Positions 9,827-64,000 of a DNA stretch of 64,000 bases are shown in pieces. Origin of the DNA: a bacterium (GTDB taxonomy: Bacteria; Bacteroidota; Bacteroidia; Bacteroidales; UBA1402); contig CAVEPA010000007.1 of the NCBI GenBank assembly GCA_963617485.1, forward strand, positions 30,628-94,627, read 5' to 3'. The position numbers and the translations under genes were made by a program. Position 1 is the stretch's first letter. Each line of letters starts with the position of its first letter. The notes under the pieces are model-generated. The model made no database searches. It saw only the letters and a program-made list of their open reading frames with translations, and was not told the DNA's origin.

Positions 9827-10849
<1,023 letters not shown>

Positions 10850-12412: not shown

Positions 12413-12444
12413 TTTGCTCGGCACATATTTAAACTATAATTTTG
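12413..12444 (+). promoter_or_regulatory. putative promoter of the ilv leader and operon
   Basis: TTTG 12413-12416 and taattttg 12437-12444 are separated by 20 nt. They lie about 22 nt upstream of the leader-peptide ATG. Confidence 0.45.
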
Positions 12445-12465
12445 CGCCCGAAATAAAAAACAAGG

Positions 12466-12528: not shown

Positions 12529-12602
12529 GGAAAGGCTTTTGCTTAAAATGACATATTCAAAATAAACTGACAAGCCTTTCCATTGCAGGAGAGGCTTTTT
12601 TT
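12529..12602 (+). promoter_or_regulatory. transcription attenuator: mutually exclusive antiterminator and terminator structures
   Basis: ggaaaggctt (12529-12538) is the perfect complement of aagcctttcc (12572-12581). That same segment also pairs with ggagaggctt (12588-12597, one G-U pair), which is followed by a T7 run. The 5' antiterminator arm starts at the first nt after the leader stop codon. Confidence 0.6.
12572..12602 (+). terminator. attenuator terminator hairpin upstream of ilvD
   Basis: 10-bp stem aagcctttcc / ggagaggctt, 6-nt loop attgca, then TTTTTTT (12596-12602). It ends 12 nt before the ilvD ATG. Confidence 0.65.
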
Positions 12603-12614
12603 ATTCAGGACAAG

Positions 12615-14441: not shown

Positions 14442-14452
14442 TCCAAAACCGC

Positions 14453-43516: not shown

Positions 43517-43560
43517 TGTAAATTGTTGATACTCAACGCCAAGCTGCGAGCCTGAGCGTT

Positions 43561-43610
43561 GCGAAAAGCCGCGTGCGGCCTTGCCCTGCAAGGCCGCACG
43601 CCCTTTTCGC
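43561..43610 (+). terminator. long hairpin downstream of the pectate lyase gene (terminator-like, no T-run)
   Basis: Outer stem gcgaaaag / cttttcgc plus inner 10-bp stem gtgcggcctt / aaggccgcac with loop gccctgc. Confidence 0.5.
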
Positions 43611-43708
43611 ACATCCGCTAAAAACACCTTTTCCCGAATTCGCGAACCTGCTAAATGCAATATTTCGGATAAAAATGCGATTTTTTTTTGAAAAAATTAG
43701 TTCACAAA

Positions 43709-43739
43709 TTTGGTAATCGAAAAAAATGACATAACTTTG
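43709..43739 (+). promoter_or_regulatory. putative promoter of the XRE-family regulator gene
   Basis: TTTG 43709-43712 and taactttg 43732-43739 are separated by 19 nt, and the spacer contains an A7 run. They lie within a roughly 230-bp AT-rich stretch. Confidence 0.4.
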
Positions 43740-43851
43740 CAGCGTCTTTGAAACAAAAATGAAACCGAAACGTCTTATATGCGACAAAGACAAAACAAAA
43801 ACATTAACGAGCTAAACAATAACCACTAAAGAATAGGAGCGAAGACCACCA

Positions 43852-44409
43852 ATGGAAAGTCTTGAGATTACCGAAACAAACCGCAAGGCCCCGCATGTAG
43901 GGGCATATATCAAAGCGGAGCTGGATGCCAAAGGCATGCGGCAAAAAGAGTTAGCCAAGCTAACTGGAATTCAAACCTCAACCTTGAACGACATCATCAA
44001 GGGCAGACGCGACATTACGGCCGAACAATCCATCCTCATTGGCCACGCCCTTGACCTTACCGACAATTATTTTTACAATCTGCAGCAGCAGTACGACATG
44101 GACAAAGCCCGCGAGTCGGAACGTGTTACCATGCAGTTGGACGCCATCACGAACTGGAACGCCCTGAAACATTATGTTTCCGAGAGCTTCTTCGACAAGA
44201 TGGGTCTGCTTGGTTCTGACATTAAGCACAATGTCGATGTCATTTTCGAAGTGTTCGGCGTCAAGAACCTCGACGAGTTCTTCGCCCTTCGCAATCAGGA
44301 AGCCCGCGTGGAAGCCAGCAAGAAAACCAAAAGACAGCCGGCCAGCGAACGGGACCTCTTCTCATGGAAATTCTACGGTAAGTTCCTCACCCGAGACAAG
44401 CGTCATTAA
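43852..44409 (+). CDS. XRE-family helix-turn-helix regulator (HigA/VapI antitoxin-like N-terminal domain) with a C-terminal extension of about 100 aa
   Basis: The N-terminus HVGAYIKAELDAKGMRQKELAKLTGIQTSTLNDIIKGRRDITAEQSILIGHAL matches the HigA-type HTH_3 pattern. No toxin-sized ORF is adjacent. Confidence 0.75.
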   Translation: MESLEITETNRKAPHVGAYIKAELDAKGMRQKELAKLTGIQTSTLNDIIKGRRDITAEQSILIGHALDLTDNYFYNLQQQYDMDKARESERVTMQLDAITNWNALKHYVSESFFDKMGLLGSDIKHNVDVIFEVFGVKNLDEFFALRNQEARVEASKKTKRQPASERDLFSWKFYGKFLTRDKRH

Positions 44410-44492
44410 ACAACCTTTAAAAGCCTGATTTTCTCCTCGAAAAAAACGCCCGAAACCCTCCGCAAATAGCCCAAACTTTTAACAAAAAAGTG

Positions 44493-44524
44493 TTTGGAGA
44501 ATGCATAAATAACCAGTACCTTTG
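44493..44524 (+). promoter_or_regulatory. putative promoter of the pilus-like operon
   Basis: TTTG 44493-44496 and tacctttg 44517-44524 are separated by 20 nt, about 75 nt upstream of the first ATG (44599). Confidence 0.4.
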
Positions 44525-44598
44525 CGGCCGAAAAAAATAAGGGTAAGTCGATAGCGAAAACGGGATAAAAAATCCAACCAGAAAACTCTGTAAATCAG

Positions 44599-45924
44599 AT
44601 GACTAAGACTTTGTTCAACAAGACGGTAATCCTGAAGGCAATCGTGCTGATTTTGACCTTGGGTCTGTCGTTTGAAGCTTGGAGCGCTACCAACGAGACT
44701 TTCGTTGATATCAAGTTCCGCCTCGACGATGCCAGAATCGACACCGCTTATATGGACAACGCCACTGCCATGAACCGCCTGGCCGCAGTTATCGACAGCA
44801 TCGGTCGCGAGAACCTCGTTTCCGTCAAGGCTGTTTCGGTATCATCGCCCGAAGGTCCCTACTGGTACAACAAGCGCTTGTCTATGCGTCGTCAGCAGGC
44901 TGTGCTGGAGTACTTGAACAGAGAATTCCCCGAATACGAAAACCTTATCACCACCGACTGGCGCGCAGAATCTTGGGAAGACTTGGCCACCTTCGTTGCA
45001 GCCGACCAGAACCTGAGCGCCGAAAACATCGAAAAGGTTCTCAAAATTGTCAACTCCACGAAATTTTCCGACAAGCGTAAGAAAGACTTCTACACCTTGG
45101 GTTATCAAGACGGTCTGGGCAATATCTACCGCTACCTTTACAAGAGCTACTATCAGTACCTGCGTTACTCGGGCATCGTAGTCGTAAGCAACGGCAACGT
45201 GGCACTCGCTCCTCTGGCTTGCAACATCAAGCCCCTGCCCACCGACAGCCTGCAAGGCCCGCAGCTTTCCATCCTCGATATCCAGCAGAGCGCAGTGGCC
45301 AGCATCGACGATGCTGACAGCAAGGTTCGCGAACCCATGCTTTCAGTAAAGACCAACATGCTCTACAACGCCTTCTTCTATCCCGGCGTAGGTATGCGTC
45401 CCATCTGGAACGGCACCATCGAGTACTATCCCCGCCACAGCGAACACTGGACCTTCCTGGCCGAAGTGGAAATGCCTTGGTGGTCGAACTACGACGAGCA
45501 GCACTACTGCTTCCAAATTCGCAACTATCAACTCGAAGCAAGGCGTTACTTTGCTTCCGACAGAAAACATAACGGACTCTATCTCTCGGCTTACACCATG
45601 TCTAACCTCTACGACATCTGCCTCGACCTGAACAAGGGACGCGGCCGTCAGGGCGAAGGTTACGGCGCAGGCCTAGGCGTGGGTTACGTACTGCCTATCA
45701 GCAAGAACGGCAGCTGGAAACTCGAATTCCTGCTGAAGGCCGGTTACTATGAATCGCGTTACGATTCTTATCATGCAGGCAGACCTTTCGCAGGCAAGTA
45801 TTACTACGATTGGACTGGCGACGCCGCCGATTTCAAACCCAGAAACTGGCGTCTCAGATGGTTCGGACCTACCGGAGTAGGTATTTCGTTGAGCTATGAT
45901 TTGTTGAGCAGAAAAGTTAAGTAA
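44599..45924 (+). CDS. outer-membrane protein: N-terminal OmpA-like module fused to a C-terminal DUF3575-like beta-barrel
   Basis: 441 aa with a signal peptide. The OmpA-like signature is VSSPEGPYWYNKRLSMRRQQAVLEYL. The C-terminal roughly 200 aa have alternating aromatic/Gly beta-strand patterns ending in GVGISLSYDL, which I associate with DUF3575 proteins at the head of Bacteroidales fimbrial operons. Confidence 0.65.
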   Translation: MTKTLFNKTVILKAIVLILTLGLSFEAWSATNETFVDIKFRLDDARIDTAYMDNATAMNRLAAVIDSIGRENLVSVKAVSVSSPEGPYWYNKRLSMRRQQAVLEYLNREFPEYENLITTDWRAESWEDLATFVAADQNLSAENIEKVLKIVNSTKFSDKRKKDFYTLGYQDGLGNIYRYLYKSYYQYLRYSGIVVVSNGNVALAPLACNIKPLPTDSLQGPQLSILDIQQSAVASIDDADSKVREPMLSVKTNMLYNAFFYPGVGMRPIWNGTIEYYPRHSEHWTFLAEVEMPWWSNYDEQHYCFQIRNYQLEARRYFASDRKHNGLYLSAYTMSNLYDICLDLNKGRGRQGEGYGAGLGVGYVLPISKNGSWKLEFLLKAGYYESRYDSYHAGRPFAGKYYYDWTGDAADFKPRNWRLRWFGPTGVGISLSYDLLSRKVK

Positions 45925-45948
45925 GCGATGATGCGTTTTTGCCAAAAT

Positions 45949-47181
45949 ATGAAAAAGTCCTTCCGCATGCTGCTGATGATGGCAGTGCTCACCGTAGCAC
46001 TGGCCTCCTGCGAACGCAAGCCCCTGTATCTGGTGGGCGGCGGCAACGTGGAACTCGACGTGGCTATCTACGACATCCGTCTGAGCCTGCTCTGGGGTCT
46101 CAACTGGGAGACCGAATGGCAGTACGACTGGGCCGATGAGTACGGCGAAATCGGTTACACCCGTCCCGACTACGTTCGCGCCATCATGTACAATGTAGAC
46201 CAGTTCCTTGGCAAGAGAGAAAATCCGCAAACCAGAAACTTCGCCGCTACCGGCGGTATGGTTTCCCTGCTGCCCGGCAGCATGTACGACATGCTCTTCT
46301 ACAACTCGGGTTACGAATACATCCAGGTGCTCACCGACGATGACAACACCTATTACAAAGCAACCACCCGCCGCAGCAACACCAAGGCCTACTCCAAGAG
46401 CAAGGCTGCCGCAGAAGAAAGCGGCGACGATTCGCAATATGTAGACTACAACCAACCCGATGAATTCTTCGGAACCTTCCTGAGCGACCTCTGGGTATCG
46501 GACAACACCGACGATTACGAACAGACCGTAGCCGAAGACGGCACCATCGTTTACCTGTACAGAGTAAACGCCAGCCTGCGTCCTTACTCCATGATTTACC
46601 TCTATCAGATTATGGTTATCAACAACGAAGACTCTATCGGTAACAAGATTGTAGGCGCTCAGGGTTACACCGTAACAGGTTTGTCGAACGAAGTTAACAT
46701 GTTCAACCGCATGAACGACTCAACTTCCGTATCGGTATCGTCCGAAGTGGTTCGCCCGCTTATCGACAACAAGATGCTGACCTTGCCCGACGGCACACAA
46801 GTACAAGGCGATATCATGGCCAGCCGTATGCTTACCTGGGGTCTGTCGGGTATCAGCCCGCTGGACGAAGCCGACAAGTACATAGCCGGTGAAACCAAGA
46901 GCGGCAACACCAAATCGCGTGCCGACGAAGTGAACCCAGTAGACGACAACTATATCAACATAGGCGTAACGCTGCGCAACGGCGCTACCAAGGTGATTAG
47001 CAAGAACATCACCGAGCAGATGAACAACCATCCCGCCGGCGGCGTTATTACCGTTGTGATTGATGCAGCCCAGGAAATTTCCGCTTCCGACCTGAACGGC
47101 GGTTCGGGTTCGAAGGGTGGCGGTTTCAGTGCCGATGTTAACGACTGGGGCAACTCACAAGACGCTGAAATAACTATTTAA
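45949..47181 (+). CDS. lipoprotein of unknown function in the position usually held by the pilus anchor (Mfa2/FimB- or DUF5119-like)
   Basis: I place the start at ATG 45949 (MKKSFRMLLMMAVLTVALASC lipobox). It lies between the barrel gene and the fimbrillin array. Function is inferred from position only. Confidence 0.45.
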   Translation: MKKSFRMLLMMAVLTVALASCERKPLYLVGGGNVELDVAIYDIRLSLLWGLNWETEWQYDWADEYGEIGYTRPDYVRAIMYNVDQFLGKRENPQTRNFAATGGMVSLLPGSMYDMLFYNSGYEYIQVLTDDDNTYYKATTRRSNTKAYSKSKAAAEESGDDSQYVDYNQPDEFFGTFLSDLWVSDNTDDYEQTVAEDGTIVYLYRVNASLRPYSMIYLYQIMVINNEDSIGNKIVGAQGYTVTGLSNEVNMFNRMNDSTSVSVSSEVVRPLIDNKMLTLPDGTQVQGDIMASRMLTWGLSGISPLDEADKYIAGETKSGNTKSRADEVNPVDDNYINIGVTLRNGATKVISKNITEQMNNHPAGGVITVVIDAAQEISASDLNGGSGSKGGGFSADVNDWGNSQDAEITI

Positions 47182-47269
47182 CAAGGTGTTGACGAAAAAA
47201 ACGACAAAAAACTTGACAATTATATTTTTTAATTAATACTTTTACTAATTCTTCGAAAAGAACAAAACA

Positions 47270-48517
47270 ATGAAAAAGAGTTATTTGATTCTGCTTGCCG
47301 CTGTATGCGCATTTACAGCTTGCAAAAACGACGATTTCCTTGGAACCGTCAAGTCTGAAACCCCTGCTGCCGAACAGCAGATTGCTTTCTCAACATTCAA
47401 CAACAAAATGACCAAGGCTGAGAATTCTAATGAAACTGAAAAGATTTCTCTGCTTAAGCACCATGCCGATTTTTCCGTATGGGCGCTGAAAGACAACGAA
47501 ACCTCCAAGTGGGTGTTCAACGGCACCCAAGTTGAAGGCAAGGAAGAAAGCGGCGTTATCACTTGGGAACCCGTAGACGTACGTTTCTGGGACAAGACCG
47601 CTACCCGCTACGATTTCTACGCTGCCGCTCCTGCCAGTGCTGCTTGGGCGTTGAAAAATGTTGCTCCCAGCACGACTGCAACGGCTTACACAGGTGGTTA
47701 CTTCACCTTGGACGATGTTACTTTGGCAGACAAGACTTTGAATGCTAAGGACTATCAGGAATCTATGAAGGCTGACGAACAGACCAACATCGACTACATG
47801 ATTGCTACCGATAAGTTTGTTGAACAAGCCAATTTCGGTCAGGAAGTAGACCTCGACTTCAACCACATCCTTTCACGTTTGAACGTAACCGTTAAGCGCG
47901 GTCCCAGCCTCGAAAAGTGGGCCACCAAGAATCCAACCAAAGCCGAATATGCCAAGGTTGAGCTTACCGGCCTCGAGGTGGTAAAGATGCTCAGCAAGGG
48001 CTCTTTCGCTGAAAACGCTGTTAGCGGCACCGACCTGCAGCAGGGTACCACTGGCCGTTGGACCACCACCAGCGATGTTATCAACTACACCGCTTGCACC
48101 ACCAACGCTACCGACCTGACGGCTACTCCCGAAGTTTACGTGCTGCAATCGCTGGTAATGCCTCAGACCGTCAAGTACGAAGCTATCAACGCCGGTACCG
48201 GTAAAAAGGGCGATGGTACTGATGCCGCAGAAACCTATATCTGTGTAAAGTTCAAGATTGGTACGGAAGACTACACCACCTATGTAAACTTGGCTGCTGC
48301 TTTCGGTGCTAAGGAAGACGATTCTGCTACCACCGATATTGACGAATCTCTGATTGCCTTTAACGAAGGCTGGCAGAACACCCTGCGTATCGCCATCGAT
48401 GCTTCGGCTATCACCTTCACCGCTAACGCTTACAACTGGGCCGACGGTGCCGACAGCAGCTACACCATTGAGACTTCTATCAACATTCCTACCAACCTTG
48501 ATATTGTTGGTGAATAA
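47270..48517 (+). CDS. fimbrillin-family (type V pilin-like) lipoprotein, paralogue 1
   Basis: Lipobox AFTAC, then a first strand IAFSTF followed by KMTKAENS. It shares blocks with paralogues 2-4 (RFWDKTATRYDFYAAAP, DLDFNHILSRLNVTVKRG, IAFNEGWQNTLRIAID). Codon usage is gapA-like and T-ending. Confidence 0.7.
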   Translation: MKKSYLILLAAVCAFTACKNDDFLGTVKSETPAAEQQIAFSTFNNKMTKAENSNETEKISLLKHHADFSVWALKDNETSKWVFNGTQVEGKEESGVITWEPVDVRFWDKTATRYDFYAAAPASAAWALKNVAPSTTATAYTGGYFTLDDVTLADKTLNAKDYQESMKADEQTNIDYMIATDKFVEQANFGQEVDLDFNHILSRLNVTVKRGPSLEKWATKNPTKAEYAKVELTGLEVVKMLSKGSFAENAVSGTDLQQGTTGRWTTTSDVINYTACTTNATDLTATPEVYVLQSLVMPQTVKYEAINAGTGKKGDGTDAAETYICVKFKIGTEDYTTYVNLAAAFGAKEDDSATTDIDESLIAFNEGWQNTLRIAIDASAITFTANAYNWADGADSSYTIETSINIPTNLDIVGE

Positions 48518-48573
48518 TCCTTGGTATAAGACTAACCGATAAACAAGTAATAACAATAAAAAACATCATAACA

Positions 48574-49755: not shown

Positions 49756-49773
49756 GACTTAGGTTGCTTGAGG

Positions 49774-49804
49774 GCAGACGGGCGCGCGAAGCGCGCCTGT
49801 CTGC
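49774..49804 (+). terminator. strong intra-operon GC hairpin after fimbrillin paralogue 2 (attenuating terminator or RNA-stability element)
   Basis: 14-bp stem gcagacgggcgcgc / gcgcgcctgtctgc (one G-U pair) with loop gaa. There is no T-run. A second small hairpin cgcaag/cttgcg follows at 49807-49829. Confidence 0.5.
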
Positions 49805-49871
49805 ACCGCAAGACCAGGGACGGCTTGCGCCGCCCGACCAACAGATTGATTAACTACTTAAACAACCGATT

Positions 49872-50984: not shown

Positions 50985-51073
50985 TTGAATAACTCTTTTC
51001 GATGCAATATATAGGCTGGGTGGGCTTGGTTGTCTGCCCAGCTACTATGTAACCAGACGACAGGTTTAATACT

Positions 51074-53251: not shown

Positions 53252-53273
53252 CGAGATAATATACCAGTTGAAT

Positions 53274-56200
53274 ATGAACCGCTATTTTACTGTTATCCTG
53301 ATATTGCTGACGTTTTCGGTATCGGCCAAGGCACAGATTACCATTGGCGGAAGCGTTTATGGTGGTGGCCGTAACGGCGCTGTGGGAACGGGCAACACCC
53401 CGGCCGCGCAGGTGGCTACGGCTGCCGACTTTGAGGCCGCTACGGTGGCCGCCCAGTCTACAGCCACGATGGTGACGGTAAACAGCGGTAGTTTGAACAA
53501 TATTTACGGCGGTGGCGAAAAGGGCAATAGCAAGGGCCAAACCAACGTCGTGCTCAGAGGCGGTTCGATAAACGGAAGTGTGTATGGCGGTGCCATGATG
53601 GCCGATATTGAGGGCTATTCGCACGTGAACATTGATGCTGCCAACCTGCGCAGCGACCTTGTGCTGGCCAATGTGTACGGCGGTAACGATATTGCCGGCA
53701 ACATCAGCCAGTTGGCCTATGTGGAATCTACTTACGCTTCCGACCTTGACAAGGCCGTGGCCGACGGCGGCAAGCGCTGCTATGTGCTGAACCTCTTTGG
53801 CGGCGGCAACGGCGACTATGCCGATTCGCTCTACACGGGCAGTCTTGAGCGTCCCACGCTGGCCCAAGCCGAGATTCACCTTACTTCGGGTTGCTACTAT
53901 CAGATTTTCGGCGGCGGCAATATGGCCACGGTAACGGCCAACACCACCATCGACCTGCAGAACCGGACACAATTGCGTTTCCATGCTTCGCAAAATGCAG
54001 ACGGCAGCTATAGCTTCGACGACGAAATTCCTGAATATCAGTTCGAAAGAGTATTCGGCGGCAACAACAAGGTGGCCATGGACATACGGCCCACTTGGAA
54101 CTTGCAAAAGGCTTCGGTAGAGAACCTTTATTCGGGCGGCAATGCCGGCGATATGACCTACCACACGGGTATCTTGCTCGAAATTGCCAGTGCCGACATG
54201 ACCGTCTACAACGTCTACGGCGGTTGCCGTATGGCCAATGTGAGCAATTCGGCCACGGTGACGGTGAGCGACGGTATCATTACCAATGTTTATGGCGGTA
54301 ACGATATCTCGGGCAATGTCTACGGCGGCACGCAGGTGAACATTCAAAGCAGCGTGCTGGGCGATGTTTACGGCGGCGGCAACGGTTCTTACGCCTATAC
54401 CGACAACATCAAGCTCAAGGACGATGCCCAATACAGCGATATTTTCTACGAAATTCCCGGTGTCGATTACGAGAATTTGCCCAGCGACATTTCCTTGCTC
54501 TCGGCCCAGGCACTCAACGCTTACCGACCCAATGCCGAGAACGTAACTATCTCGCTTTCAGGTAAGTCTGATGCCGAACCTACCTATATCGGCGGTTCGG
54601 TTTATTGCGGTGGCAACAGTGCTACACTGCGTTCCACCTCGGGCAATCTGGAAGCTGCTTCGGCCACGCTCAAGCTTGGTTCTTATGTGATAGCCAACCA
54701 CATTTTCTTGGGTAGCAACGGTGCCAATATGGTGGCCCGCGACCAGGCCGGCGATATGCTGCGTGTGCTTCGCGACGGCCCTGTCGACTACGATGCCACG
54801 GCGCAGGGTAAATATTCGCTGATGGATCTGACCGACCACGACACTTTCGAAGAATACATGAAGGGTGTCGAGGTGGCCATCAAGCCGCAAGTGGGTTTTG
54901 TGGATGATTATGTAGACTATTCGTCCAAGGTGGGTTCGGTGTATGTCGGTGGTAATGTGGGCAGTATGTCGGCCACGGGCTATTTCAACCTCTCGTTCCT
55001 GCAGAAGGTAGTGGTTTTCGAAAAGCTGGTGGGCGGCTGCAACAATGCCAATATATCGGCCGGTGCCTACAATGCCTATCACGAAGGCGGCCTTACTTCT
55101 TACAGTGCCACCAAGGTTATCATGAACGTGGAAGGCATGAAGCTGCAGCCCATGAAGCTGACGGCCAATGCCGACGGTACTTTTACCTTTGCCGAGAACC
55201 GTAATGCCGATGGCTTGCTGGTGGGTGGCAACATCTACGGCGGCTGCTACGAAAGCGGTTACATCAACGGTGGTGTGGAAATCAACATCAAGCAAGATGC
55301 CATCTCATCGTCCGTGAGCGATGCCGACCGTCAGCTTATCCGCGACAATGTTTTCTCGACAGCCCTCTCGGCTTTTGGCGGCGGTTATGGCCACAATGCC
55401 GAAATTTGGGGCGACGTTACGGTGAATATCAGCAACGATGCCAATATAATTAAGGTGTTCGGCGGTGGCGAAATGGGTGTGGTAGGACGCACCAAAGGCA
55501 GTGCCGCTCCCGAAAACCTTTTCCACGAACCTCTTACGGCCAACACCAATATCAGCATTACCGGCGGTACGGTGGGTAAAATCTACGGAGGCGGTTTCGA
55601 AGGTCTGGTAACGGGTAACACCAAGGTGATGCTCGACGGCGGTAAGGTGTACGATGCCATGGCCGGTGCCTGCAACGCCGATATTGACGGTTATGCCCAA
55701 ATGCTGATGGGTAGCGTGAACGGCGGTGCAACTACCACAGTGGAACACAACGTTTACGGCGGCAACGACTTTGGCGGACGCATTGCTTCGGCTGCCACCT
55801 ATACGGGTGCCAACGGCCAAAACGTGACGGCCAATACTTATGTGTCTTATCAAAAGGGTATAGTAGGGAACAGTATCTACGGCGGTGCTTGCGGCAGTTA
55901 CGACTATTCCGTTGCGCCTTACAGCACCAAGGCTGCCGAGGCCGGTTTCTACTATCCGAAATTCGAAACGCTACCCACGGGCGGCGACATCAATACCAAC
56001 AGTTTTGTGGATATCCGCACCACGGCTGCCAGCGACAAGGCCGACGGCAATATCTACGGCGGTGGCCGGGGCTTTTTGAATGCCAAGTCCGGCGATGCCC
56101 AGCTGGCCATTGTGGATATGAAACAGTCGTATGTGCTACTGCGCAGCCAGAACGCTACGGGTCTGGTGGCCGACAACATTCTGGGCGGCGGTTACTACTC

Positions 56201-59200
56201 GGTGGTTGAGCATACTTTGGTCGATGCCTTGAGCGGCCGTGCCAATATCCTTTACGGTGGTACTTACGGTGCTTCGGCCACCCTCATGGACGAAAACGTC
56301 AGCTACGACTGCAACACTACCACGGTGAACCTCAAGGGCATCAAGTACGACCAGCTGAATGTGTTCGGCGGCGGTGCCAATACGGGTGCCAGAATCACTT
56401 ACGTGAATCTGCTCGAAGGTTATGTGAAAGATGTCTATGGCGGTTCCAATATGGAAGGTGTCTGCGACAGCACTTTTGTTGATGTGCCTGCCAGCGGCAA
56501 GGAATTCATTGCCCATGCCATTTACGGCGGTGCTTACGGCAGCAGCGACAACCTGCCTTGCGATGTTTTGGTAGCCAACGTGAACTTCGCTTCCGACCAA
56601 GCTTATGTTTCGGGCGGCGAGCTGTTTGGCGGCAACAACAATGCCCGTGCTTCGCAAAAGACTTTTGTGACGGTGTCTGCACCGCTGCGTACGGCAGCCG
56701 GTGCTACGCTGGCCAGTGTGTTCGGCGGCGGCCAGGGTGTCAATTCGGTGGCCGGTTATACCAACGTTACGCTTAACAGCGGTGCCCAAGTGGGCAATGT
56801 CTACGGTGGCGGCGATGCCGGCAAGGTGTACGGCTATTACAACGACAACAGTGGCGCTGCTACTTACTACAACCAGACTTCGCATCCCGAGCATCCTTAT
56901 GCCCATTGGGCTTTTGAGGCTCCTGTTGCCGGAGGCAACTGGAGCACGGCAGCTGCCAGTCCCAATACCAATATTTATATCAACGAAGGTGCTACAGCCC
57001 AATATGTTTACGGTGCCGGTTACGGTTCGCAGGCCACCGTGTCGGGCAATACCTATGTGCTGCTCAACGGCGGTAAGGTAGAGAACGACATCTTCGGCGG
57101 CGGTTATTCGGGCAATGTACAGGCCATGGCCGCCAGCGACCTTGGCGCTGGCGGCACCATCCCTGCCGACCAGACGGACAATATCTACACCTATGTATTT
57201 GTACGCGGCGGTGCGGTGAACAACGTTTACGGTGGCGGTTACAACGGCCACGTCGGTCTGTCGGGCATAGCTTCGCAGGCCTCCACCGATGCCACCAACC
57301 CCAACACCCGCGTGGAAGTGGGTCTGTTGGAAGGCAGCAGCTTTACCGATGGTGTTCCTGCCATAACCCGCAGCCTTTACGGCGGCGGTTATAAGGGCGC
57401 TGTTTACGGTTTGGCCAAGGTGCAGATTTTCAACGGCTACACGGGCTATACCTACAACGCTGCCGGCCACTATGAAGAAAACCTCAACTATCAGGGTAGC
57501 ACGGCCAAACTGCTGAAAGAAAACGGCAATGTTTTTGGCGGCGGTTATGGTGAAGGTGCCACGGTAGACCGCACCGAAGTTTATCTCTGGAACGGTACGG
57601 TACGCAACAGCCTTTATGGCGGCGGCGAAATTGCAGCCATCGGCCGGGGTAGCGTGAACGATGACAAGAAGACCGCCACCATCAGCTTGCCCGGCAAGAC
57701 GTTGGTGGAAATGTACGGTGGTTTGGTAGCCGGCAATATCTTCGGCGGTGGCCGCGGTTATGCGGTAGATGCCTACGGTAACACGCAGAACGGCGAAATG
57801 GGTTATTCCGACGGTTATACCTTCGGCCATACCGAAGTTCACTTGCGCCGTGGCACCGTGGGTACGGACGACACTGTGCTGGAAGGCGACGGTAACATCT
57901 TCGGCGGCGGTAACATCGGTTATGTCTACACCGCTACCGGTACCAAGGATGCCAGCGACGGCTATTATTACAACAACGGTCTGCTTACCGAAGACTGCCG
58001 TGTGCTTATCGCACCCTATGCCAAGGTACTCGAAGCCGTCACCATAGACGGTACCAGCTACGGAGTGGGCGAGTTCGTTCCTACCGAAAAACTGAATACG
58101 CTCAGCGCTTCCGATGCTGCTTGGAGCAAGATAGACAATTTGGGTATCACCATCGGCAACGCCGTGTTTGCAGGCGGTAACGTTTCGGCCGGTTCCGATA
58201 AGGTATACGCCAATGCCAAGACCGTTTTCGGCAATGCCACGGCTTCCGTTACCGATATCTTCAACAAAGACTTTGTGGTAATCGGCGGCGATGGTATCGG
58301 CGGTTTGTATGGCGATGGCAACCTTACCTTTGTGGATGGCTACCGCGAGCTGAACATCACCAACTACGGTACCGACTACTACAACTTGAACAACCAGCTT
58401 ACCTACGAGCAATACATGATGCTCACCGACCGTGAGCGTGCCTATTTCGAGCTGCAATATATGTCCAATGTGGCACATACTTACGAATTCTACGAATGTC
58501 TCCATGCCGATTATTACGGCGAAATCTATTATAGAAAAGGCCAAAAACTGCCCGCATCCGCCTTCGAGGCGCTGGGCCTGACTGACGAAGAAAAAACGCA
58601 CTGGATACAGTCGTCGAAGAACTTCGACACGGGCGACAAGGTTTCGCAAGACGAATATAATTTGATGGATGATGCCGAGCAGGCCAACTGGGATTTGTTC
58701 GGTTTCTGTACCCTGTATGCCGGCCGTATGATTAACACCATACAGCGTGCCGACTTCTGCGGTGTGTTCGGCAGCCGTATCGTTATGCGTGGCGCGCGCG
58801 ACCGTGTGCCCTCCACCGTCGACTACACCTACTACACTATCAACCGTGTGGACGAAGTTTCGCTCAACCAAATGCCCGACCCCAAGAATCCTACCGATGC
58901 CAGCCAAAACCACGGCAACTACTTCGGTATCTATTCGGTGGTGAACTATCTGGGTGCCCTTACTTCGGATGTCGAGTTCGAGAGCGAACGTGTTACCGAC
59001 AATACCGATGCCAGCTATGCTCCCGATGGCCGTAGCTACTACGACTGGAAGAGCGCCAACTTGAACAACCGCAAGCGCAACAACGGTACCAGCCGCAACG
59101 AGGTGGCCCTGGCTTCCGGTGTATGGCTCGAAATTGTAGACAAGTCTACCGAAACGGCCGGTGAAAAGATTTACGGCCCCATCACCGGTGTGGTACAATT

Positions 59201-62200
59201 GGACTTGATTAACGTAGCTACCGGCGAAGGTGGCGGTTATGTATATGCCAAGAACATCCATGGTGTCAAGACCAAGCTCTCGCTTAAGCAGGTAACGCTG
59301 ACGGCTGCCAACCAAGGTGCCGTTTCGTACAAGGAGTTCTCTTATGCCGATGCCGTTCAGGCCGACCACATGCAGACTTCGGGCAACTTTGTGAATAGCC
59401 TCAAGCGCATTGTCGACGACTGCTATCCCGAAAACAACGCTTATGTGGGCAGCGATGCAGCTCCCGCCCATTACTGGTATGTGCGTGGCGACTTCTACGT
59501 TTACGAACAGAACATCTCGGCCTACACCGGTTCGTCGCAGGCTTATGCCGAGTCTATCACCATTCCGCTTACCATTACGGCCGAAGCTCAGGGCCGTCTG
59601 CGTCTGGAAAGTGTCAACGAAAACCTTTACGCCTACTGGAACGACAGCTACGATATCGACAAGTATCAAAGTCCGCTCGATGCCAACGCCATTATTGTGC
59701 AAGGTGTCACCTACCAGAAGAACGACCCCATTTCGTATTGGACCTATTCGCGTCTCACCGACGAGGAGAAACTGCTCTTCACCGATGAAACCTATGTCTG
59801 CTCCAAGGCTGTTTCCTACAATGGCAAAGACTACGCCAAGGGTGCCGTGCTGCTGCCTTCGGAATATGCCGCCATGCCTACCGACCAATATGTTTGCGAA
59901 TACGACTTTGTTGATGGCGATGCCGCCTACACCGAGGGTACGGTGCTGACGCAGGCCCAGTGGGAGTCGCTCAGTGCTTCCAACCAAGACAAGTGCGCTA
60001 CGGTGCGCTCGTTCTTCAACATCTCCAACGCCCTGTCGCACGACGAAGGCTTCCTGCTCACCTTCGACTGGGATAACCCCGACATCTGGAACGACTATTA
60101 CCAGCATGCCGCTACTGCCGGCGATGCCGACCAGCAAGTGGTGCGCAAGTCTGTTTACGATACTTACGATGCCACTACCAAGGCCGCTTACGTAACGGCT
60201 CCTTCGCTCAGGAGTACCACCACTTCGGTGATGGGTCAGTTGCAGTACACGCAGGGCGACCTTATCGAGAAGGAAATCTACGACTATCAGGCTCAGGTAA
60301 CCACCGACCTTGCTGCCAACGGCTTGACGGATACGCGTACCGGCCAGGCCAGCTTCGAAAAGGCTTGGGTGGCCAAGCAGGCCTGCAAGTTTACCGACAA
60401 TGGCCGCGACTACAATTATGTGGAAGGTGCCTGCATCTCCGATACCGAATATCAGGCCTTCAGCGCTACGGGCAAGGCTTACTTTACGCAAGGTATGCTC
60501 TGTACCAAGACCTATCAGCGCGGTGAAGACGAATATTACCTGCGCGGTTCGGTGCTGACTCTTGCCGACTACAACACACTCTTGGCCGAAGATGCCGAAA
60601 TAGCCGACCATTTCAGTGATCCTTACATTTGTACCAAGGACGGTGCTTGGGGCGGTAGCCTGTTTGTGCAGACCAACAATTACCCGGCACTGAAGTACGC
60701 CAACCTGACGGCGGCCGAACGCCAGAACTTCACCTACAACTACGATGCCCTCGACTTGATGTCGGAGAACTTCAATGCCAGCGACATCTTGCATTATCAG
60801 GGTGGGGTGGGCAACCATGCCAATGCGGGCAAGGCCATCGCCAAGCAGAACAACTATGCCGAAGAGGAGGCCATCGACTACACGGCCCGCTACGAAGGTG
60901 AGGATATGACCGCCGACAACTGTCTGGCCGAAGAGGTGCTTGTTACCCGCGATGGCAGCCAGCTGATGACCAATATGCTCAAGATGGGCGATATTCTTAA
61001 GAACACCGCTTACGAAAGCCTTACCAACGAGCAGTTCAAGTTTACGCCTATCACCGCCAGCGGTACCGACGATGCCGACAAGGTGTTCTATGTGGTGAAG
61101 GAAGGTTTCCAGACGGGCGACAACTATTACACCGTGGGCAACCAGATTACCGAGGCCATCTACCAAGGCATGACCAGCAGCAACAAGAACAAGGTGGCTT
61201 TGATATCGCGCAGCAGTCTGCCCAACTATCCTACGGGTAGCGAAACCAAGAGCTACTACTTCTGTACGCGCAAGTACACAGCCATATCGCCTCATACCGA
61301 CATCAACGGTGTCAGCTATGCCGTGGGCGACGAAGTGCCGGTAGGAACCATCATCTCGGCCGACCATTACAACACGCTGACGAACGAACAGAAGAACTTT
61401 GAAATAGACGGCAAGATTCCGACCTCGCTCACTACGCTCTATGTATCGCGCGAAGTGGACATCAACCAGCTGTCGCAAGACAAGATTGTTACCGTTATCT
61501 ATTGGTACGAATACATAGAAAGTGACGAAACGGGTATGTCGTACGAAACCATCCGCGAGCGTCATATCGTGAACATCCGCATCCATTTCGAGAGCGGTGT
61601 GCCCACCATCGGTGAGCTGCTGCCACCAAGTACGGTGCTGCCTTCGACGGCCGTGGGTCTGAATACGCCTACCATCGAGGAAGGTGCTTACGAACTGCTG
61701 GGTGGCGGTTGGGAAATGTACTCGAACGAGGCCGATGCCTACGCCCACAAGAACGGTGCCGAGTATGTGAACCGCAATACGCCCATGTACTGGTATCAGG
61801 ACGGTTACTATGTGGCCTACTACGCCAAGTCTTATCTGGGCAAGACTTACTCTAACCCCGTACAGTTCTCGGTGGCCAACTATCACCGTATGTCGGAAGT
61901 GATGAGCAATACGCACAGCGAAACCCTCGAAGACAACTCTACGGTAACGGTCAACGACTATATGTATCTGAACGATGCCATCAAGGCCGGCAAGCGTGCG
62001 CCCAAGGTTTACATCAAGGACAATGCCGATATGGAGGCTTTCGCAAGCTTCTTCAACAAGACTCTGACCGAAGAGAACCTCGACTTGGTACGCGGCGGTT
62101 CGGGTATCGACTTTATCCTTGCGGGCGATGTTGCCCTTAGCGGCAGCTGGACCTCGCTGGGCGACGACAGCCAGTGCTTCGAAGGTAACTTCCACGGCGA

Positions 62201-64000
62201 CGGTCATGCGCTGACCGGTCTCGACCATTCGCTCTTCGGCAATCTTTGCGGTAAGGTCTACAACCTGGGTGTGGCCGGTTCGTTCAGCTCGGCCGGTATT
62301 GCCGACCAGGGTAGCGGTAGCGTGAAGAACTGCTGGATTTACACCACCAACACTGCTGCCAAGGCTGTGAATGCCGTGCTGGGTACGCCTTCGCACAGCA
62401 ATGCTCAGGAACCTCAGATTATCAACTGCTACTATAACCAGGATGCCGCCTACAATAATCCTGTCAGCACCCACGGTCTTGCCAAGGCCATGCCGGTGCG
62501 GGCTTATCTGGATGGTCAGGTGGCCTTCCTGCTCAACGGCTTCTATCTGGAAAAACGTTATCAAGACAGCAAGAGCCTGACTGCCGGACAGCAATATCGC
62601 TACTGGCCGCTGGATAAACTGGATGGCAAGATAACGATGGCCAGCACCGCTTATTACGAAGACGATGTGGAAACCTATGTGGAAGAGCGTTATCAGTATG
62701 CCGACTTTATTTACGCCGACGGTACTATTCCTTTGACGACCGATGTGCGCCACAATATGAACGAAACCTATTCGCCGGTTTACCCCGACGACTACATCTA
62801 CTTTGGCCAGAGCCTGAGCTACAATATCGTTATGGGTGGTGGCAAGTCGGATGAATATCCGCATGCTGTGGCCCGTACCACCGACAAGAAACTGCTCCGT
62901 ACCGATGCCGCCGACACGCGTGTTTACCGTGCACCGGGCTACTACCAGAGCAAGCAGATGTCTACCGTTTACTTCAACGGCCATGCCGCCTTTGTAGATG
63001 ATTATGTGCTGACACCTGTAGCCGATGGCGGTATTTATGCGGCTGCCGAAACGATGGATGTCTACAAGACCTTGACGGCCATCGACTTTACCGGTCATGG
63101 CGATGCTTCTTGGCAAAGGGGCTGGAACGACGGTCTGTTCTATACGCCGCTGCTCGACTTCGAAGGCGTGTACTCCTTCCAGACCGATGGTATAACGCGC
63201 AACCTGCTGGTTTACATCAATCCCGCCGATGGCGATGCTTCTTCGGCCGACAGCCGCACCGACGCTGCGCTGGCCACTTTCTCGAAAGACCCCGCCTACG
63301 ACGATTACTATCAGGGCAACGGCTACCGTTCGGTAAGCAAGAACGAAATTGAAGTGATGGGCCACGTGGTATATAACAACGGCGGCAACTACATTGCCTA
63401 CAGCGACCACTTCCTGGTTGACAAGAACGACTTCAACGCGCCTATTGCCTATACCTTCGATACCGACAAGCGCATGTGGTACCAGCGCGAGCCAGACAAG
63501 TTCATCACCTCGATGACCCAAGGTTGGGAAAGCGTCAGCCTGCCCTTCGAAGTGGAACTGCTCAGCACCAACCAAAAGGGTGAACTTACGCACTTCTACG
63601 GCGACAGCAACAAGGGCCACGAATACTGGTTGCGTGCCTATGCCGATGCCACCGAGGATGCCACCGCTTCGCCTGTTAGCTACACGGTGAACATGAACCG
63701 TCCCGCCAGCCAGAGCGGCGCGTCCAAGACGGCCACCAGTACCTTCCTCTGGGATTACTACTACGAGGGTACGACCAGTGCCGGCGACAACACCGACGAA
63801 AATACCGACGCTTACCAGCGCCAGTACTACCAAAACGCCCGCGACTACGATGGCTACGCTTATCAGCAGGCAGCCACGCCTTACCTGGTGGGCTTCCCGG
63901 GCAGCAACTACTACGAGTTCGATTTGAGCGGCGGCTTCATTGCCCAGAATTCGGGCAGCGGAACGCCCGCCCAGCTGAACCGCCAGACCATCAGCTTTGT
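53274..64000 (+). CDS. giant secreted repeat protein (at least 3575 codons inside the window; the 3' end is beyond nt 64000), putative beta-helical surface adhesin
   Basis: ATG 53274 follows an in-frame TAA at 53241. By my own translation the frame stays open to the window end. The track lists no plus-strand ORF in this frame, as expected for an ORF with no stop in the window. The N-terminus MNRYFTVILILLTFSVSAKAQ is a type I signal peptide. About 40 [VIL]-[YF]-G-G-x motifs follow. Confidence 0.85.
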   Translation, partial: MNRYFTVILILLTFSVSAKAQITIGGSVYGGGRNGAVGTGNTPAAQVATAADFEAATVAAQSTATMVTVNSGSLNNIYGGGEKGNSKGQTNVVLRGGSINGSVYGGAMMADIEGYSHVNIDAANLRSDLVLANVYGGNDIAGNISQLAYVESTYASDLDKAVADGGKRCYVLNLFGGGNGDYADSLYTGSLERPTLAQAEIHLTSGCYYQIFGGGNMATVTANTTIDLQNRTQLRFHASQNADGSYSFDDEIPEYQFERVFGGNNKVAMDIRPTWNLQKASVENLYSGGNAGDMTYHTGILLEIASADMTVYNVYGGCRMANVSNSATVTVSDGIITNVYGGNDISGNVYGGTQVNIQSSVLGDVYGGGNGSYAYTDNIKLKDDAQYSDIFYEIPGVDYENLPSDISLLSAQALNAYRPNAENVTISLSGKSDAEPTYIGGSVYCGGNSATLRSTSGNLEAASATLKLGSYVIANHIFLGSNGANMVARDQAGDMLRVLRDGPVDYDATAQGKYSLMDLTDHDTFEEYMKGVEVAIKPQVGFVDDYVDYSSKVGSVYVGGNVGSMSATGYFNLSFLQKVVVFEKLVGGCNNANISAGAYNAYHEGGLTSYSATKVIMNVEGMKLQPMKLTANADGTFTFAENRNADGLLVGGNIYGGCYESGYINGGVEINIKQDAISSSVSDADRQLIRDNVFSTALSAFGGGYGHNAEIWGDVTVNISNDANIIKVFGGGEMGVVGRTKGSAAPENLFHEPLTANTNISITGGTVGKIYGGGFEGLVTGNTKVMLDGGKVYDAMAGACNADIDGYAQMLMGSVNGGATTTVEHNVYGGNDFGGRIASAATYTGANGQNVTANTYVSYQKGIVGNSIYGGACGSYDYSVAPYSTKAAEAGFYYPKFETLPTGGDINTNSFVDIRTTAASDKADGNIYGGGRGFLNAKSGDAQLAIVDMKQSYVLLRSQNATGLVADNILGGGYYSVVEHTLVDALSGRANILYGGTYGASATLMDENVSYDCNTTTVNLKGIKYDQLNVFGGGANTGARITYVNLLEGYVKDVYGGSNMEGVCDSTFVDVPASGKEFIAHAIYGGAYGSSDNLPCDVLVANVNFASDQAYVSGGELFGGNNNARASQKTFVTVSAPLRTAAGATLASVFGGGQGVNSVAGYTNVTLNSGAQVGNVYGGGDAGKVYGYYNDNSGAATYYNQTSHPEHPYAHWAFEAPVAGGNWSTAAASPNTNIYINEGATAQYVYGAGYGSQATVSGNTYVLLNGGKVENDIFGGGYSGNVQAMAASDLGAGGTIPADQTDNIYTYVFVRGGAVNNVYGGGYNGHVGLSGIASQASTDATNPNTRVEVGLLEGSSFTDGVPAITRSLYGGGYKGAVYGLAKVQIFNGYTGYTYNAAGHYEENLNYQGSTAKLLKENGNVFGGGYGEGATVDRTEVYLWNGTVRNSLYGGGEIAAIGRGSVNDDKKTATISLPGKTLVEMYGGLVAGNIFGGGRGYAVDAYGNTQNGEMGYSDGYTFGHTEVHLRRGTVGTDDTVLEGDGNIFGGGNIGYVYTATGTKDASDGYYYNNGLLTEDCRVLIAPYAKVLEAVTIDGTSYGVGEFVPTEKLNTLSASDAAWSKIDNLGITIGNAVFAGGNVSAGSDKVYANAKTVFGNATASVTDIFNKDFVVIGGDGIGGLYGDGNLTFVDGYRELNITNYGTDYYNLNNQLTYEQYMMLTDRERAYFELQYMSNVAHTYEFYECLHADYYGEIYYRKGQKLPASAFEALGLTDEEKTHWIQSSKNFDTGDKVSQDEYNLMDDAEQANWDLFGFCTLYAGRMINTIQRADFCGVFGSRIVMRGARDRVPSTVDYTYYTINRVDEVSLNQMPDPKNPTDASQNHGNYFGIYSVVNYLGALTSDVEFESERVTDNTDASYAPDGRSYYDWKSANLNNRKRNNGTSRNEVALASGVWLEIVDKSTETAGEKIYGPITGVVQLDLINVATGEGGGYVYAKNIHGVKTKLSLKQVTLTAANQGAVSYKEFSYADAVQADHMQTSGNFVNSLKRIVDDCYPENNAYVGSDAAPAHYWYVRGDFYVYEQNISAYTGSSQAYAESITIPLTITAEAQGRLRLESVNENLYAYWNDSYDIDKYQSPLDANAIIVQGVTYQKNDPISYWTYSRLTDEEKLLFTDETYVCSKAVSYNGKDYAKGAVLLPSEYAAMPTDQYVCEYDFVDGDAAYTEGTVLTQAQWESLSASNQDKCATVRSFFNISNALSHDEGFLLTFDWDNPDIWNDYYQHAATAGDADQQVVRKSVYDTYDATTKAAYVTAPSLRSTTTSVMGQLQYTQGDLIEKEIYDYQAQVTTDLAANGLTDTRTGQASFEKAWVAKQACKFTDNGRDYNYVEGACISDTEYQAFSATGKAYFTQGMLCTKTYQRGEDEYYLRGSVLTLADYNTLLAEDAEIADHFSDPYICTKDGAWGGSLFVQTNNYPALKYANLTAAERQNFTYNYDALDLMSENFNASDILHYQGGVGNHANAGKAIAKQNNYAEEEAIDYTARYEGEDMTADNCLAEEVLVTRDGSQLMTNMLKMGDILKNTAYESLTNEQFKFTPITASGTDDADKVFYVVKEGFQTGDNYYTVGNQITEAIYQGMTSSNKNKVALISRSSLPNYPTGSETKSYYFCTRKYTAISPHTDINGVSYAVGDEVPVGTIISADHYNTLTNEQKNFEIDGKIPTSLTTLYVSREVDINQLSQDKIVTVIYWYEYIESDETGMSYETIRERHIVNIRIHFESGVPTIGELLPPSTVLPSTAVGLNTPTIEEGAYELLGGGWEMYSNEADAYAHKNGAEYVNRNTPMYWYQDGYYVAYYAKSYLGKTYSNPVQFSVANYHRMSEVMSNTHSETLEDNSTVTVNDYMYLNDAIKAGKRAPKVYIKDNADMEAFASFFNKTLTEENLDLVRGGSGIDFILAGDVALSGSWTSLGDDSQCFEGNFHGDGHALTGLDHSLFGNLCGKVYNLGVAGSFSSAGIADQGSGSVKNCWIYTTNTAAKAVNAVLGTPSHSNAQEPQIINCYYNQDAAYNNPVSTHGLAKAMPVRAYLDGQVAFLLNGFYLEKRYQDSKSLTAGQQYRYWPLDKLDGKITMASTAYYEDDVETYVEERYQYADFIYADGTIPLTTDVRHNMNETYSPVYPDDYIYFGQSLSYNIVMGGGKSDEYPHAVARTTDKKLLRTDAADTRVYRAPGYYQSKQMSTVYFNGHAAFVDDYVLTPVADGGIYAAAETMDVYKTLTAIDFTGHGDASWQRGWNDGLFYTPLLDFEGVYSFQTDGITRNLLVYINPADGDASSADSRTDAALATFSKDPAYDDYYQGNGYRSVSKNEIEVMGHVVYNNGGNYIAYSDHFLVDKNDFNAPIAYTFDTDKRMWYQREPDKFITSMTQGWESVSLPFEVELLSTNQKGELTHFYGDSNKGHEYWLRAYADATEDATASPVSYTVNMNRPASQSGASKTATSTFLWDYYYEGTTSAGDNTDENTDAYQRQYYQNARDYDGYAYQQAATPYLVGFPGSNYYEFDLSGGFIAQNSGSGTPAQLNRQTISF
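53340..58320 (+). repeat. protein-level periodic region of the giant ORF (about 40 copies of the motif [NSD]-[VIL]-[YF]-G-G-[GNCAST], spaced roughly 20-60 aa apart)
   Basis: Examples read off the translation are SVYGGGRNG, NIYGGGEKG, NVYGGNDIAG, NLFGGGNGD, DVYGGGNGS, KIYGGGFEG, NIYGGGRGF, NVYGGGDAG, SLYGGGYKG, NIFGGGRGY and NIFGGGNIG. At the DNA level tacggcggcgg/ttcggcggcgg recurs. Confidence 0.7.

Follow-up and report, generated by a model that had tools for sequence, protein, structure and literature searches.

Within a window of 64,000 nucleotides (nt) of contig CAVEPA010000007.1 (assembly GCA_963617485.1, positions 30,628 to 94,627 of the forward strand), which derives from a gut or rumen bacterium of the order Bacteroidales, we analyzed a locus that extends from position 44599 to the end of the window and resembles the operons of type V pili. 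Open reading frame (ORF) listing and translation place eight genes on the plus strand, which encode in this order a DUF3575 protein, a DUF5119 lipoprotein, five fimbrillin-like lipoproteins (Fim1 to Fim5) and one giant protein. Taking all lines of analysis together, we lean towards a type V pilus to which the giant, as predicted cargo of the secretion system of type IX (T9SS), would be docked as an accessory protein via Fim5. This interpretation is carried by the fimbrillin homology of the lipoproteins, by the sorting domains at the ends of the homologous giants and by the almost invariant adjacency of Fim5 and the giant gene in related genomes. To our knowledge, Mfa5 of Porphyromonas gingivalis is the only case in which a T9SS-secreted protein is built into a type V pilus.

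The spacers between the eight consecutive genes measure 3, 88, 56, 116, 89, 0 and 22 nt. The ORF calls therefore bear out the pilus-like operon with gaps of 0-116 nt on one strand that had been described in an initial annotation of the sequence, and the genes are probably co-transcribed. The type V pilus layout proposed there for the front part of the locus also agrees with the Pfam assignments. In detail, the first gene matches DUF3575 (E 7e-16, residues 247-433), the second DUF5119 (E 2e-8, above the cut-off), and Fim1 to Fim4 each match Mfa_like_1 with E values from 1e-11 to 4.5e-14. Homologues of the DUF3575 protein, which we grouped as family O, stand first in many related loci, and the orthologue in the locus of Prevotella sp. 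tc2-28 (L056) matches DUF3575 with an E value of 3e-49, while its match to OmpA stays below the cut-off (24.5 versus 27.2 bits). A PDB profile search with the DUF5119 protein alone returned no match. The profile built from Fim1 to Fim4 and their homologues (family F) gave 4qb7 as best PDB match with an E value of 3e-26, followed by 4k4k, 3ufi, 3t2l and 4eps, all of which are solved Bacteroides fimbrillin-type structures. The fimbrillin nature of Fim1 to Fim4, on which the initial annotation had placed a reservation, is thus confirmed by Pfam and PDB alike.

The DUF5119 protein and Fim1 to Fim5 all carry a lipobox, which reads LASC, FTAC, SSC, AAC, LASC and LTAC, respectively. For Fim3 there is also a match to the lipobox model LPAM_1, which is weak and below the cut-off. 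The lipobox cysteine is kept in at least 90% of the aligned family F members, and about 25-35 residues past this cysteine a T-[KR]-A site is conserved in the fimbrillin alignment. We regard it as the predicted trimming site, corresponding to the position where type V pilins lose their N-terminal strand. The predicted maturation residue is lysine (T-K-A) in Fim1 to Fim3 of the window and arginine in most homologues and in Fim5; the lysine may mean that the maturation protease of this organism is Lys-specific or has a dual specificity. Fim1 and Fim2 share 37% identity, and the C-terminal ...YNW of Fim4 recurs in its positional homologues.

Fim5 is more divergent. Pfam gave no match for the copy in the window, and only 11 of the 73 members of its family match Mfa_like_1 individually. 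A comparison of the Fim5 family with the Fim1-4 family by hhalign revealed full-length similarity with a probability of 98.5% and an E value of 3e-15, and the Fim5 profile found the fimbrial protein BF1861 (3sy6) in the PDB as a weak match (E 0.005). In the alignment of the 73 orthologues Cys28 is invariant, and at least 90% of the sequences carry Arg57. Judged by these profile comparisons, Fim5 appears to be a genuine though divergent fimbrillin, and the five fimbrillin-like lipoproteins counted initially can be upheld, four of them by Mfa_like_1 and the fifth by family comparison together with the weak 3sy6 match.

Counted from the ATG at position 53274, the frame of the giant is still open at position 64000, and thus 3,575 amino acids (aa) are visible in the window. 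In all five independent metagenome-assembled genome (MAG) assemblies that carry the locus, found via a look-up of Fim5 and with contigs of about 113 kb, the gene is called at 3,753 aa, and due to this identical call we consider the ORF genuine and not an assembly artefact. The call exceeds the window copy by 178 aa, the homologues run 154-196 aa beyond the window end, and the gene is therefore expected to end near window coordinate 64535, about 535 nt past the window. A search of metagenome contigs for an exact 50-mer out of the window end found none, a protein-based metagenome scan for an extension of the window yielded only relatives with at most 45% identity, and the species-representative contig of the locus (L005) spans only 4.3 kb. 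The giant starts with a type I signal peptide, MNRYFTVILILLTFSVSAKA, followed by glutamine (cleavage ...SVSAKA, Q). The mature protein would begin with this Gln21 (+1), which at least 90% of the homologues share. N-terminal pyroglutamate is a habit of signal-peptidase-I substrates in Bacteroidetes, which the conserved glutamine fits.

As the window copy ends before its own C-terminus, the mode of export was deduced from its relatives. The C-terminal tails of all 62 complete homologues resemble a T9SS C-terminal domain (CTD) with a GxY-I motif and terminal K/R motifs, and this supports the earlier comparison of the last gene with the T9SS cargo Mfa5. Both motifs resemble those described for Prevotella intermedia cargo (PMC11969387). 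For TIGR04183, which models the type A sorting domain of the T9SS and has a cut-off of 23 bits, the giant of Prevotella sp. tc2-28 reaches 29 bits. When this model was applied to ten tails of the closest relatives, nine matched with 14-23.5 bits: one reached 23.5 bits (L021), seven lay between 16 and 23 bits and one had 14 bits (E 0.033), whereas one tail gave no match. NCBI names two fragments of the giant family 'T9SS type A sorting domain-containing protein'. Besides TIGR04183, the NCBIfam scans of the homologues yielded one weak match, to a T9SS DNase; a type B sorting domain was not reported. On the basis of these homologous CTDs the giant is predicted to be a type A cargo of the T9SS, and its secretion by this route in the organism seems likely.

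Searches for homologues with three pieces of the giant resulted in 130, 320 and 59 matches, all of them fragments, the longest with about 1,500 aa. All these matches come from Bacteroidales, Bacteroidaceae or Prevotella MAGs and are named 'hypothetical protein' or T9SS type A sorting. Therefore, full-length homologues were taken from genome loci. An N-terminal alignment scan of 185,579 species-representative genomes found 350 relatives, and the best 80 loci were examined. Almost all of these belong to MAGs from the rumen or hindgut of cattle, buffalo, deer, goat, sheep, yak and horse; Prevotella sp. tc2-28 is an isolate among them. The resulting 62 complete giants, from 62 species, have a length of 3,590-4,180 aa and are collinear with the window protein from end to end at 20-64% identity. 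The identity profile alternates between variable stretches of about 20% and two conserved parts, with 50-64% at residues 1600-2100 and about 50% at residues 2700-2900.

The ORFs upstream of these giants were classified using phmmer, all-against-all clustering, family hidden Markov models (HMMs) on six-frame ORFs and hhalign. The upstream sequence could be read in 78 loci. In 76 of these, mostly from different species, a Fim5 homologue is located immediately 5' of the giant on the same strand. The gap between both genes, 22 nt in the window, has a median of about 22 nt across the loci. The survey of co-occurrence suggested earlier thus finds the homologues of the giant beside pilus genes. Two layouts can be distinguished. 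The window type consists of DUF3575, DUF5119, several Mfa_like fimbrillins, Fim5 and the giant, whereas the Prevotella type has the order DUF3575-A-B-A-C-Fim5-giant or B-A-A-A-C-Fim5-giant. Family C is fimbrillin-like (hhalign 96.8% to family F), and family B is Mfa2-like, with 10 of 41 members matching Pfam Mfa2 (PF08842), and equivalent in its role to the DUF5119 anchor. Family A comprises lipoproteins of 600-750 aa with an invariant cysteine and a near-invariant arginine, of which two or three paralogues occur per Prevotella-type operon; no Pfam or PDB match was obtained for them, and they may represent an unrecognised class of large pilins. Examples are found at positions 2608-4875 and 5951-7687 of L056, and the family spans L014-L084. 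The two layouts are built from partly non-homologous lipoprotein families. Because the Fim5-giant pairing occurs across both of them, a chance adjacency can be excluded. Furthermore, the two genes stay together while the remainder of the operon is remodelled, which argues, as far as gene order and homology can, for a specific functional and probably physical partnership between Fim5 and the giant.

A mirror-tree comparison of Fim5 and the giant over 60 loci gave a distance correlation of r 0.60. The partial correlation with Fim5 peaks at 0.32-0.37 for residues 3301-3575 of the giant (window positions 63174-63998). This part could mark a segment for docking of Fim5 or an artefact of rate heterogeneity, and we treat it as a lead only.

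Searches of the giant against Pfam, NCBIfam and PDB sequences gave no match, and its architecture was approached by motif counts, family profiles and AlphaFold2 (AF2) models. The N-terminal part is rich in glycine and contains 34 [YF]GG motifs, all within residues 29-1543, compared with 4.9 +/- 2.2 in composition shuffles. A looser motif occurs in 39 copies, 38 of them in residues 24-1633, so that the initial estimate of about 40 repeats was roughly right. The AF2 model of residues 1-700 (pLDDT, the per-residue confidence, 78; pTM, the global one, 0.83) displays a succession of short regular strands. PDB profile searches with the N-terminal and central regions found no match, and Foldseek with the N-terminal model against the PDB gave nothing significant (best E 0.94), although the non-significant list consists mostly of beta-helix proteins, namely HxuA, Ag43, EtpA, tapirin, a tailspike and PL6 lyases. 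Since no Foldseek match was significant, we term the repeat region, on the strength of the model, beta-rich and solenoid-like and not a proven beta-helix; of the beta-helix-like repeats announced in the initial annotation, the beta-rich, solenoid-like character was retained and a significant match to a beta-helix was not obtained.

The most conserved core at residues ~1800-2110 has a mean identity of 50-62% to the 62 homologues, and its invariant motifs include GRxxNTIQRADFCGVFGSR, HGNYFGIY and IPLT. The AF2 model of the centre is poor (pLDDT 54, pTM 0.31), with a confidence below 50 in the core. An exhaustive HMMER search with residues 1590-2290 against 1.84 billion representative proteins resulted in 184 matches, nearly all of them proteins of 2,000-4,700 aa or their fragments, matching at the same relative position. 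Judged by this search, the central region appears almost only in giants of this family. Within residues 2173-2709 a module with the pattern Y-x-C ... G-x-x-[IVL] ... Y ... L and a length of about 35-50 aa recurs 7-10 times; the HMM built from it recovered the seven seed copies strongly and three more weakly, two of these upstream of the region. Confident beta-beta-alpha units were predicted by AF2 at residues ~2114-2254. Finally, the C-terminal profile of the family has a weak match (E 0.009) to PDB 3n6z, a 'putative immunoglobulin A1 protease', at residues ~2935-3057, with the motif CFxGxxHGDGxxxxGL ... LCGxVYNLG. A polymorphic toxin of the CdiA or Rhs type, which we also considered, was ruled out: the C-terminal part is conserved, ends in a CTD and lacks a variable tip.

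The closest parallel to this arrangement is found in the oral pathogen P. gingivalis. Mfa5 is encoded by the last gene of the mfa operon, needs the T9SS and its own CTD and was found at the fimbrial tip; it has 1,228 aa and a domain of the von Willebrand factor (vWF) type and binds the tip pilin Mfa3 (PMC7835359, PMC8512630). All mfa5 genotypes have its C-terminal half in common. Like the operon of the Mfa1 fimbria, the window locus is a type V operon that ends in a non-lipoprotein with a Sec signal and, as predicted from the homologues, a T9SS CTD. In both cases the last protein far exceeds the pilins in size, and its gene directly follows those of pilin-like accessories (Mfa3/Mfa4 there). 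The giant, with 3,753 versus 1,228 aa, indeed has about three times the size of Mfa5, as estimated before. There are also clear differences. Mfa5 contains vWF and immunoglobulin-like domains and an isopeptide bond, whereas the N-terminal half of the giant is the Gly-rich solenoid-like repeat, and here, in contrast to the mfa operon, DUF3575 stands first and the anchor is located ahead of the pilins. The giant has no match to VWA or any other Pfam family at E <= 10 and none to PDB chains at E <= 1, including the Mfa5 entries 6tnj and 6to1. If vWF and immunoglobulin-like domains are taken to define the Mfa5 family, the giant therefore falls outside it.

With the type V pili of gut Bacteroidales (4qb7, 3ufi, 4k4k, 3sy6) the locus shares fimbrillin folds, lipoprotein precursors, the basic site and an Mfa2/DUF5119 anchor, but here the distinct Fim5 subfamily is coupled to the giant. 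In a literature search from which subscription journals were mostly absent we found no report of such gut loci ending in a giant T9SS cargo, no giant T9SS protein in any type V pilus operon and no description of 'Mfa5-like' proteins elsewhere, in line with the earlier statement that no example had been described. SprB and RemA of Flavobacterium johnsoniae are giant repetitive gliding adhesins that are secreted by the T9SS and encoded adjacent to dedicated partner genes; SprB carries a CTD of type B, is paired with a partner of the PorP/SprF type and travels along the gliding track. The likeness lies in the very large and repetitive surface proteins of Bacteroidota, the export by the T9SS and the dedicated neighbour genes, whereas the family of the giant matches TIGR04183, the model for type A, and is partnered by a fimbrillin. 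Pfam and NCBIfam revealed no sequence similarity to SprB or RemA, and no PorP/SprF-like gene is present among the classified neighbour families (fimbrillin, anchor and DUF3575). Due to the type A match, the missing report of a type B match and the missing PorP/SprF partner, we do not regard the giant as SprB-like.

More remote are HxuA, EtpA, Ag43 and the tapirins, with which the N-terminus of the giant would share a long run of short strands and Gly-rich turns according to the prediction. Besides the missing significant match, they differ in that the giant is assigned to the T9SS and has neither the domain typical of two-partner secretion nor an autotransporter barrel. Sortase pili (RrgA, GBS104) likewise consist of a shaft with a much larger tip adhesin, and Mfa5 is structurally similar to these adhesins, but they show no sequence or domain similarity to the giant and belong to another envelope with another assembly chemistry.

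Based on these data we propose the following model. The DUF5119 anchor and the four fimbrillins would be exported as lipoproteins, trimmed at the Lys/Arg site and polymerised by strand exchange, and Fim5 would mature via its own lipobox and the Arg57 site. The giant would leave the cytoplasm through Sec by means of its type I signal peptide and cross the outer membrane through the T9SS using its type A CTD. At the cell surface Fim5 might act as tip or adaptor pilin that docks the giant, in parallel to Mfa3/Mfa4, which hold Mfa5 on the Mfa1 fimbria. The solenoid-like N-terminal region of about 1,600 residues could then project outward as a long adhesive fibre, and the conserved central and C-terminal parts may carry binding or docking functions.

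Several observations weigh against a giant docked on a pilus. In two of the 78 loci (L041 and L062) a giant is present without Fim5 upstream. The window copy stops 178 aa early and its CTD is deduced from the homologues, no T9SS component genes are present among the annotated parts of the window, and the giant has no match to the vWF domain, which in Mfa5 is implicated in the incorporation. Moreover, type A cargo is cleaved and tethered to lipopolysaccharide (LPS) in the well-studied cases, and is described as glycan- or LPS-linked for P. gingivalis and P. intermedia (PMC13086638, PMC11969387), so that the giant might be anchored to the outer membrane without any pilus. It could accordingly be an autonomous LPS-tethered surface protein that is only co-regulated with the pilus, both together making up an adhesion locus of two parts, with Fim5 as an ordinary tip pilin. 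The type A CTDs of the homologues and the two loci without Fim5 would agree with this, as would the lectin, carbohydrate-binding, Fn3-associated and M26_N proteins encoded downstream in related loci, which resemble a general island for surface proteins. Yet co-regulation leaves unexplained why the pairing with Fim5 and its short spacer are kept so strictly while the upstream pilin families are exchanged, and Mfa5 demonstrates that a cargo with type A CTD can join a fimbria. We regard an autonomous giant as the main alternative, though a rather unlikely one.

It is also conceivable that the lipoproteins form only a short membrane-tethered scaffold that receives, holds or folds the giant, with a role like that of the SprF/PorP partners of SprB. 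The strict pairing would suit such a scaffold just as well, the role of the DUF3575 protein is unassigned, and in the Prevotella-type loci the 'pilin' positions are occupied by the large family A without Pfam or PDB match. Nevertheless, we judge a scaffold to be improbable, as the window contains the full type V set, in which an anchor is joined by four genuine fimbrillins that possess maturation sites, family A keeps the Cys/Arg processing signature, and only type A CTD matches and no PorP/SprF-like gene among the families were found. That the giant ORF merely lies here by chance, was misassembled or is a pseudogene in decay might be suspected from the many fragmentary database entries of its homologues and from one copy truncated by an ISL3 transposase, but this is refuted by the same 3,753-aa gene in five assemblies, by 62 intact collinear homologues and by the conserved synteny.

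Going one step beyond the docked pilus accessory that we prefer, the results can be joined to a tentative and still somewhat doubtful picture, in which a beta-solenoid giant of 3,600-4,200 aa is exported by the T9SS, captured by a fimbrillin and carried on a type V pilus in an undescribed hand-off. The core at residues ~1800-2110 would then adopt a new fold and serve in binding or as an enzyme, and the last ~275 residues of the giant in the window, with the highest co-variation, would be the docking site for Fim5. If this holds true, Prevotellaceae and Bacteroidaceae of rumen and hindgut would gain a composite fibre that far surpasses the Mfa5-tipped fimbria in length and elaboration.

The presence of a predicted T9SS cargo in this operon indicates that such an arrangement is not peculiar to one oral pathogen. 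As the giant appears unrelated to Mfa5, is three times larger and is locked to its own fimbrillin partner, the locus provides a second and independent case in which the joining of T9SS cargo to lipoprotein pilins can be studied, and with Prevotella sp. tc2-28 a cultured carrier exists. The family of the giant is large and otherwise uncharacterised, lacks both a Pfam domain and a relative of solved structure, and has been kept in hundreds of Bacteroidales species from rumen and hindgut (350 relatives, of which the best 80 were examined). It is probably a major surface structure of these abundant fibre-degrading gut bacteria, and as such it would bear on their attachment to plant particles, host mucus and other microbes. 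The coordinates of all features are listed in Table 1.

Table 1. Features of the pilus-like locus and its giant gene (window positions in nt; residues refer to the giant).
Feature	Position	Strand	Basis
HTH_3 / HigA-antitoxin-like protein, 185 aa; membership unproven	43852..44409	+	Pfam HTH_3, NCBIfam TIGR02607
Candidate Bacteroidetes-type -7 element TAccTTTG	44517..44524	+	Motif match only, 75 nt 5' of DUF3575 gene
DUF3575 outer-membrane protein, 441 aa, first operon gene	44599..45924	+	Pfam DUF3575
DUF5119 (Mfa2/FimB-type) anchor-like lipoprotein, 417 aa	45928..47181	+	Pfam DUF5119, lipobox
Fim1 fimbrillin-like lipoprotein, 415 aa	47270..48517	+	Mfa_like_1 E 1e-11
Fim2 fimbrillin-like lipoprotein, 393 aa	48574..49755	+	Mfa_like_1 E 4.5e-14
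GC-rich hairpin in Fim2-Fim3 spacer	49772..49807	+	Folding energy versus shuffles
Fim3 fimbrillin-like lipoprotein, 370 aa	49872..50984	+	Mfa_like_1 E 1.6e-11
Fim4 fimbrillin-like lipoprotein, 371 aa	51074..52189	+	Mfa_like_1 E 4.5e-13
Fim5 divergent fimbrillin-like lipoprotein, 353 aa	52190..53251	+	Family profile comparison, synteny
Giant ORF, predicted T9SS cargo	53274..64000 (open)	+	Open frame, 62 full-length homologues
Giant, type I signal peptide, Gln at +1	53274..53333	+	Sequence MNRYFTVILILLTFSVSAKA, Q
Giant, [YF]GG(G/N) Gly-rich repeats, residues ~24-1640	53343..58193	+	Motif count, AF2 model
Giant, most conserved core, residues ~1800-2110	58671..59603	+	Identity to 62 homologues
Giant, small-module region, 7-10 copies	59790..61400	+	Seed-built HMM, AF2
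Giant, IgA1-protease-like N-terminal-type module	62076..62444	+	Weak profile match to PDB 3n6z

Further observations concern the related loci. One MAG (RUG12526) contains two separate Fim5-giant loci (L030 and L053), which shows that the module can duplicate within a genome. In many loci large secreted proteins are encoded 3' of the giant on the same strand (L009, L010, L018, L021, L030, L064 and L077), and further large proteins of this downstream type are located at positions 7499-17452 of L001 and 4711-14696 of L003. Some of them exceed 2,000-3,500 aa, and their modules comprise Peptidase_M26_N, Fn3_assoc, CHB_HEX_C_1, a ricin-type lectin, Big_2 and CBM6. According to phmmer and blastp the giant shares no similarity with the M26_N/Fn3-type proteins downstream in related loci. 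On one metagenome contig (L002, positions 9157-14536) a homologue of the giant is cut to its last 1,511 aa, with a gene for an ISL3-family transposase just upstream. A contig of 5 kb with a giant fragment (L083, JAFOFS010000254.1) was binned in a 'Clostridia bacterium' MAG; as all other matches belong to Bacteroidales, this binning is probably wrong.

The DNA upstream of the locus encodes housekeeping functions, namely ilvD, an acetolactate-synthase-type enzyme dependent on thiamine pyrophosphate (TPP), carB, aspS and lptF/G, as well as a pectinesterase. The GC content amounts to 0.47-0.50 at positions ~43000-44999 and in the pilin genes, compared with 0.53-0.58 upstream and 0.52-0.57 in the giant. 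The compositional contrast pointed out in the initial annotation hence holds for the region before the locus and for the pilin genes and does not extend to the giant. Directly upstream of the locus, a plus-strand ORF of 900 aa (40814-43516; 891 aa in the source contigs) has no Pfam match in either version. It is followed by the gene for a helix-turn-helix (HTH) protein, which matches HTH_3 (E 7e-10) and the HigA antitoxin model TIGR02607 (52.3 bits, cut-off 47.7). The HTH gene is present in contigs of the same species, and phmmer found no homologue in the 80 related loci, for most of which the 10-kb flank reaches only to about the DUF3575 gene. An ORF for a HigB-like toxin is not apparent beside the HTH gene, which may or may not regulate the pilus operon.

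TAnnTTTG is the established promoter consensus of Bacteroides. A regex search found one copy 75 nt before the DUF3575 gene in the intergenic region of 189 nt with 39% GC, and a second one upstream of the HTH gene. The other gaps of the operon contain none, including the 22 nt between Fim5 and the giant, and there is no sign of the independent promoter of the giant gene that had been considered at the outset. A scan for sigma-70 promoters was uninformative (9 sites versus 8.9 expected), and convincing flanking inverted repeats of a phase-variable promoter were not found upstream of the operon. The 116-nt spacer between Fim2 and Fim3 folds with -54.8 kcal/mol (z = -7.3 versus shuffles), and a weaker hairpin (51014-51043, z -3.1) is located between Fim3 and Fim4. 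Neither of the two hairpins has a U-tract, and they may act as internal attenuators or mRNA-stability elements that tune the stoichiometry of shaft and accessory pilins.

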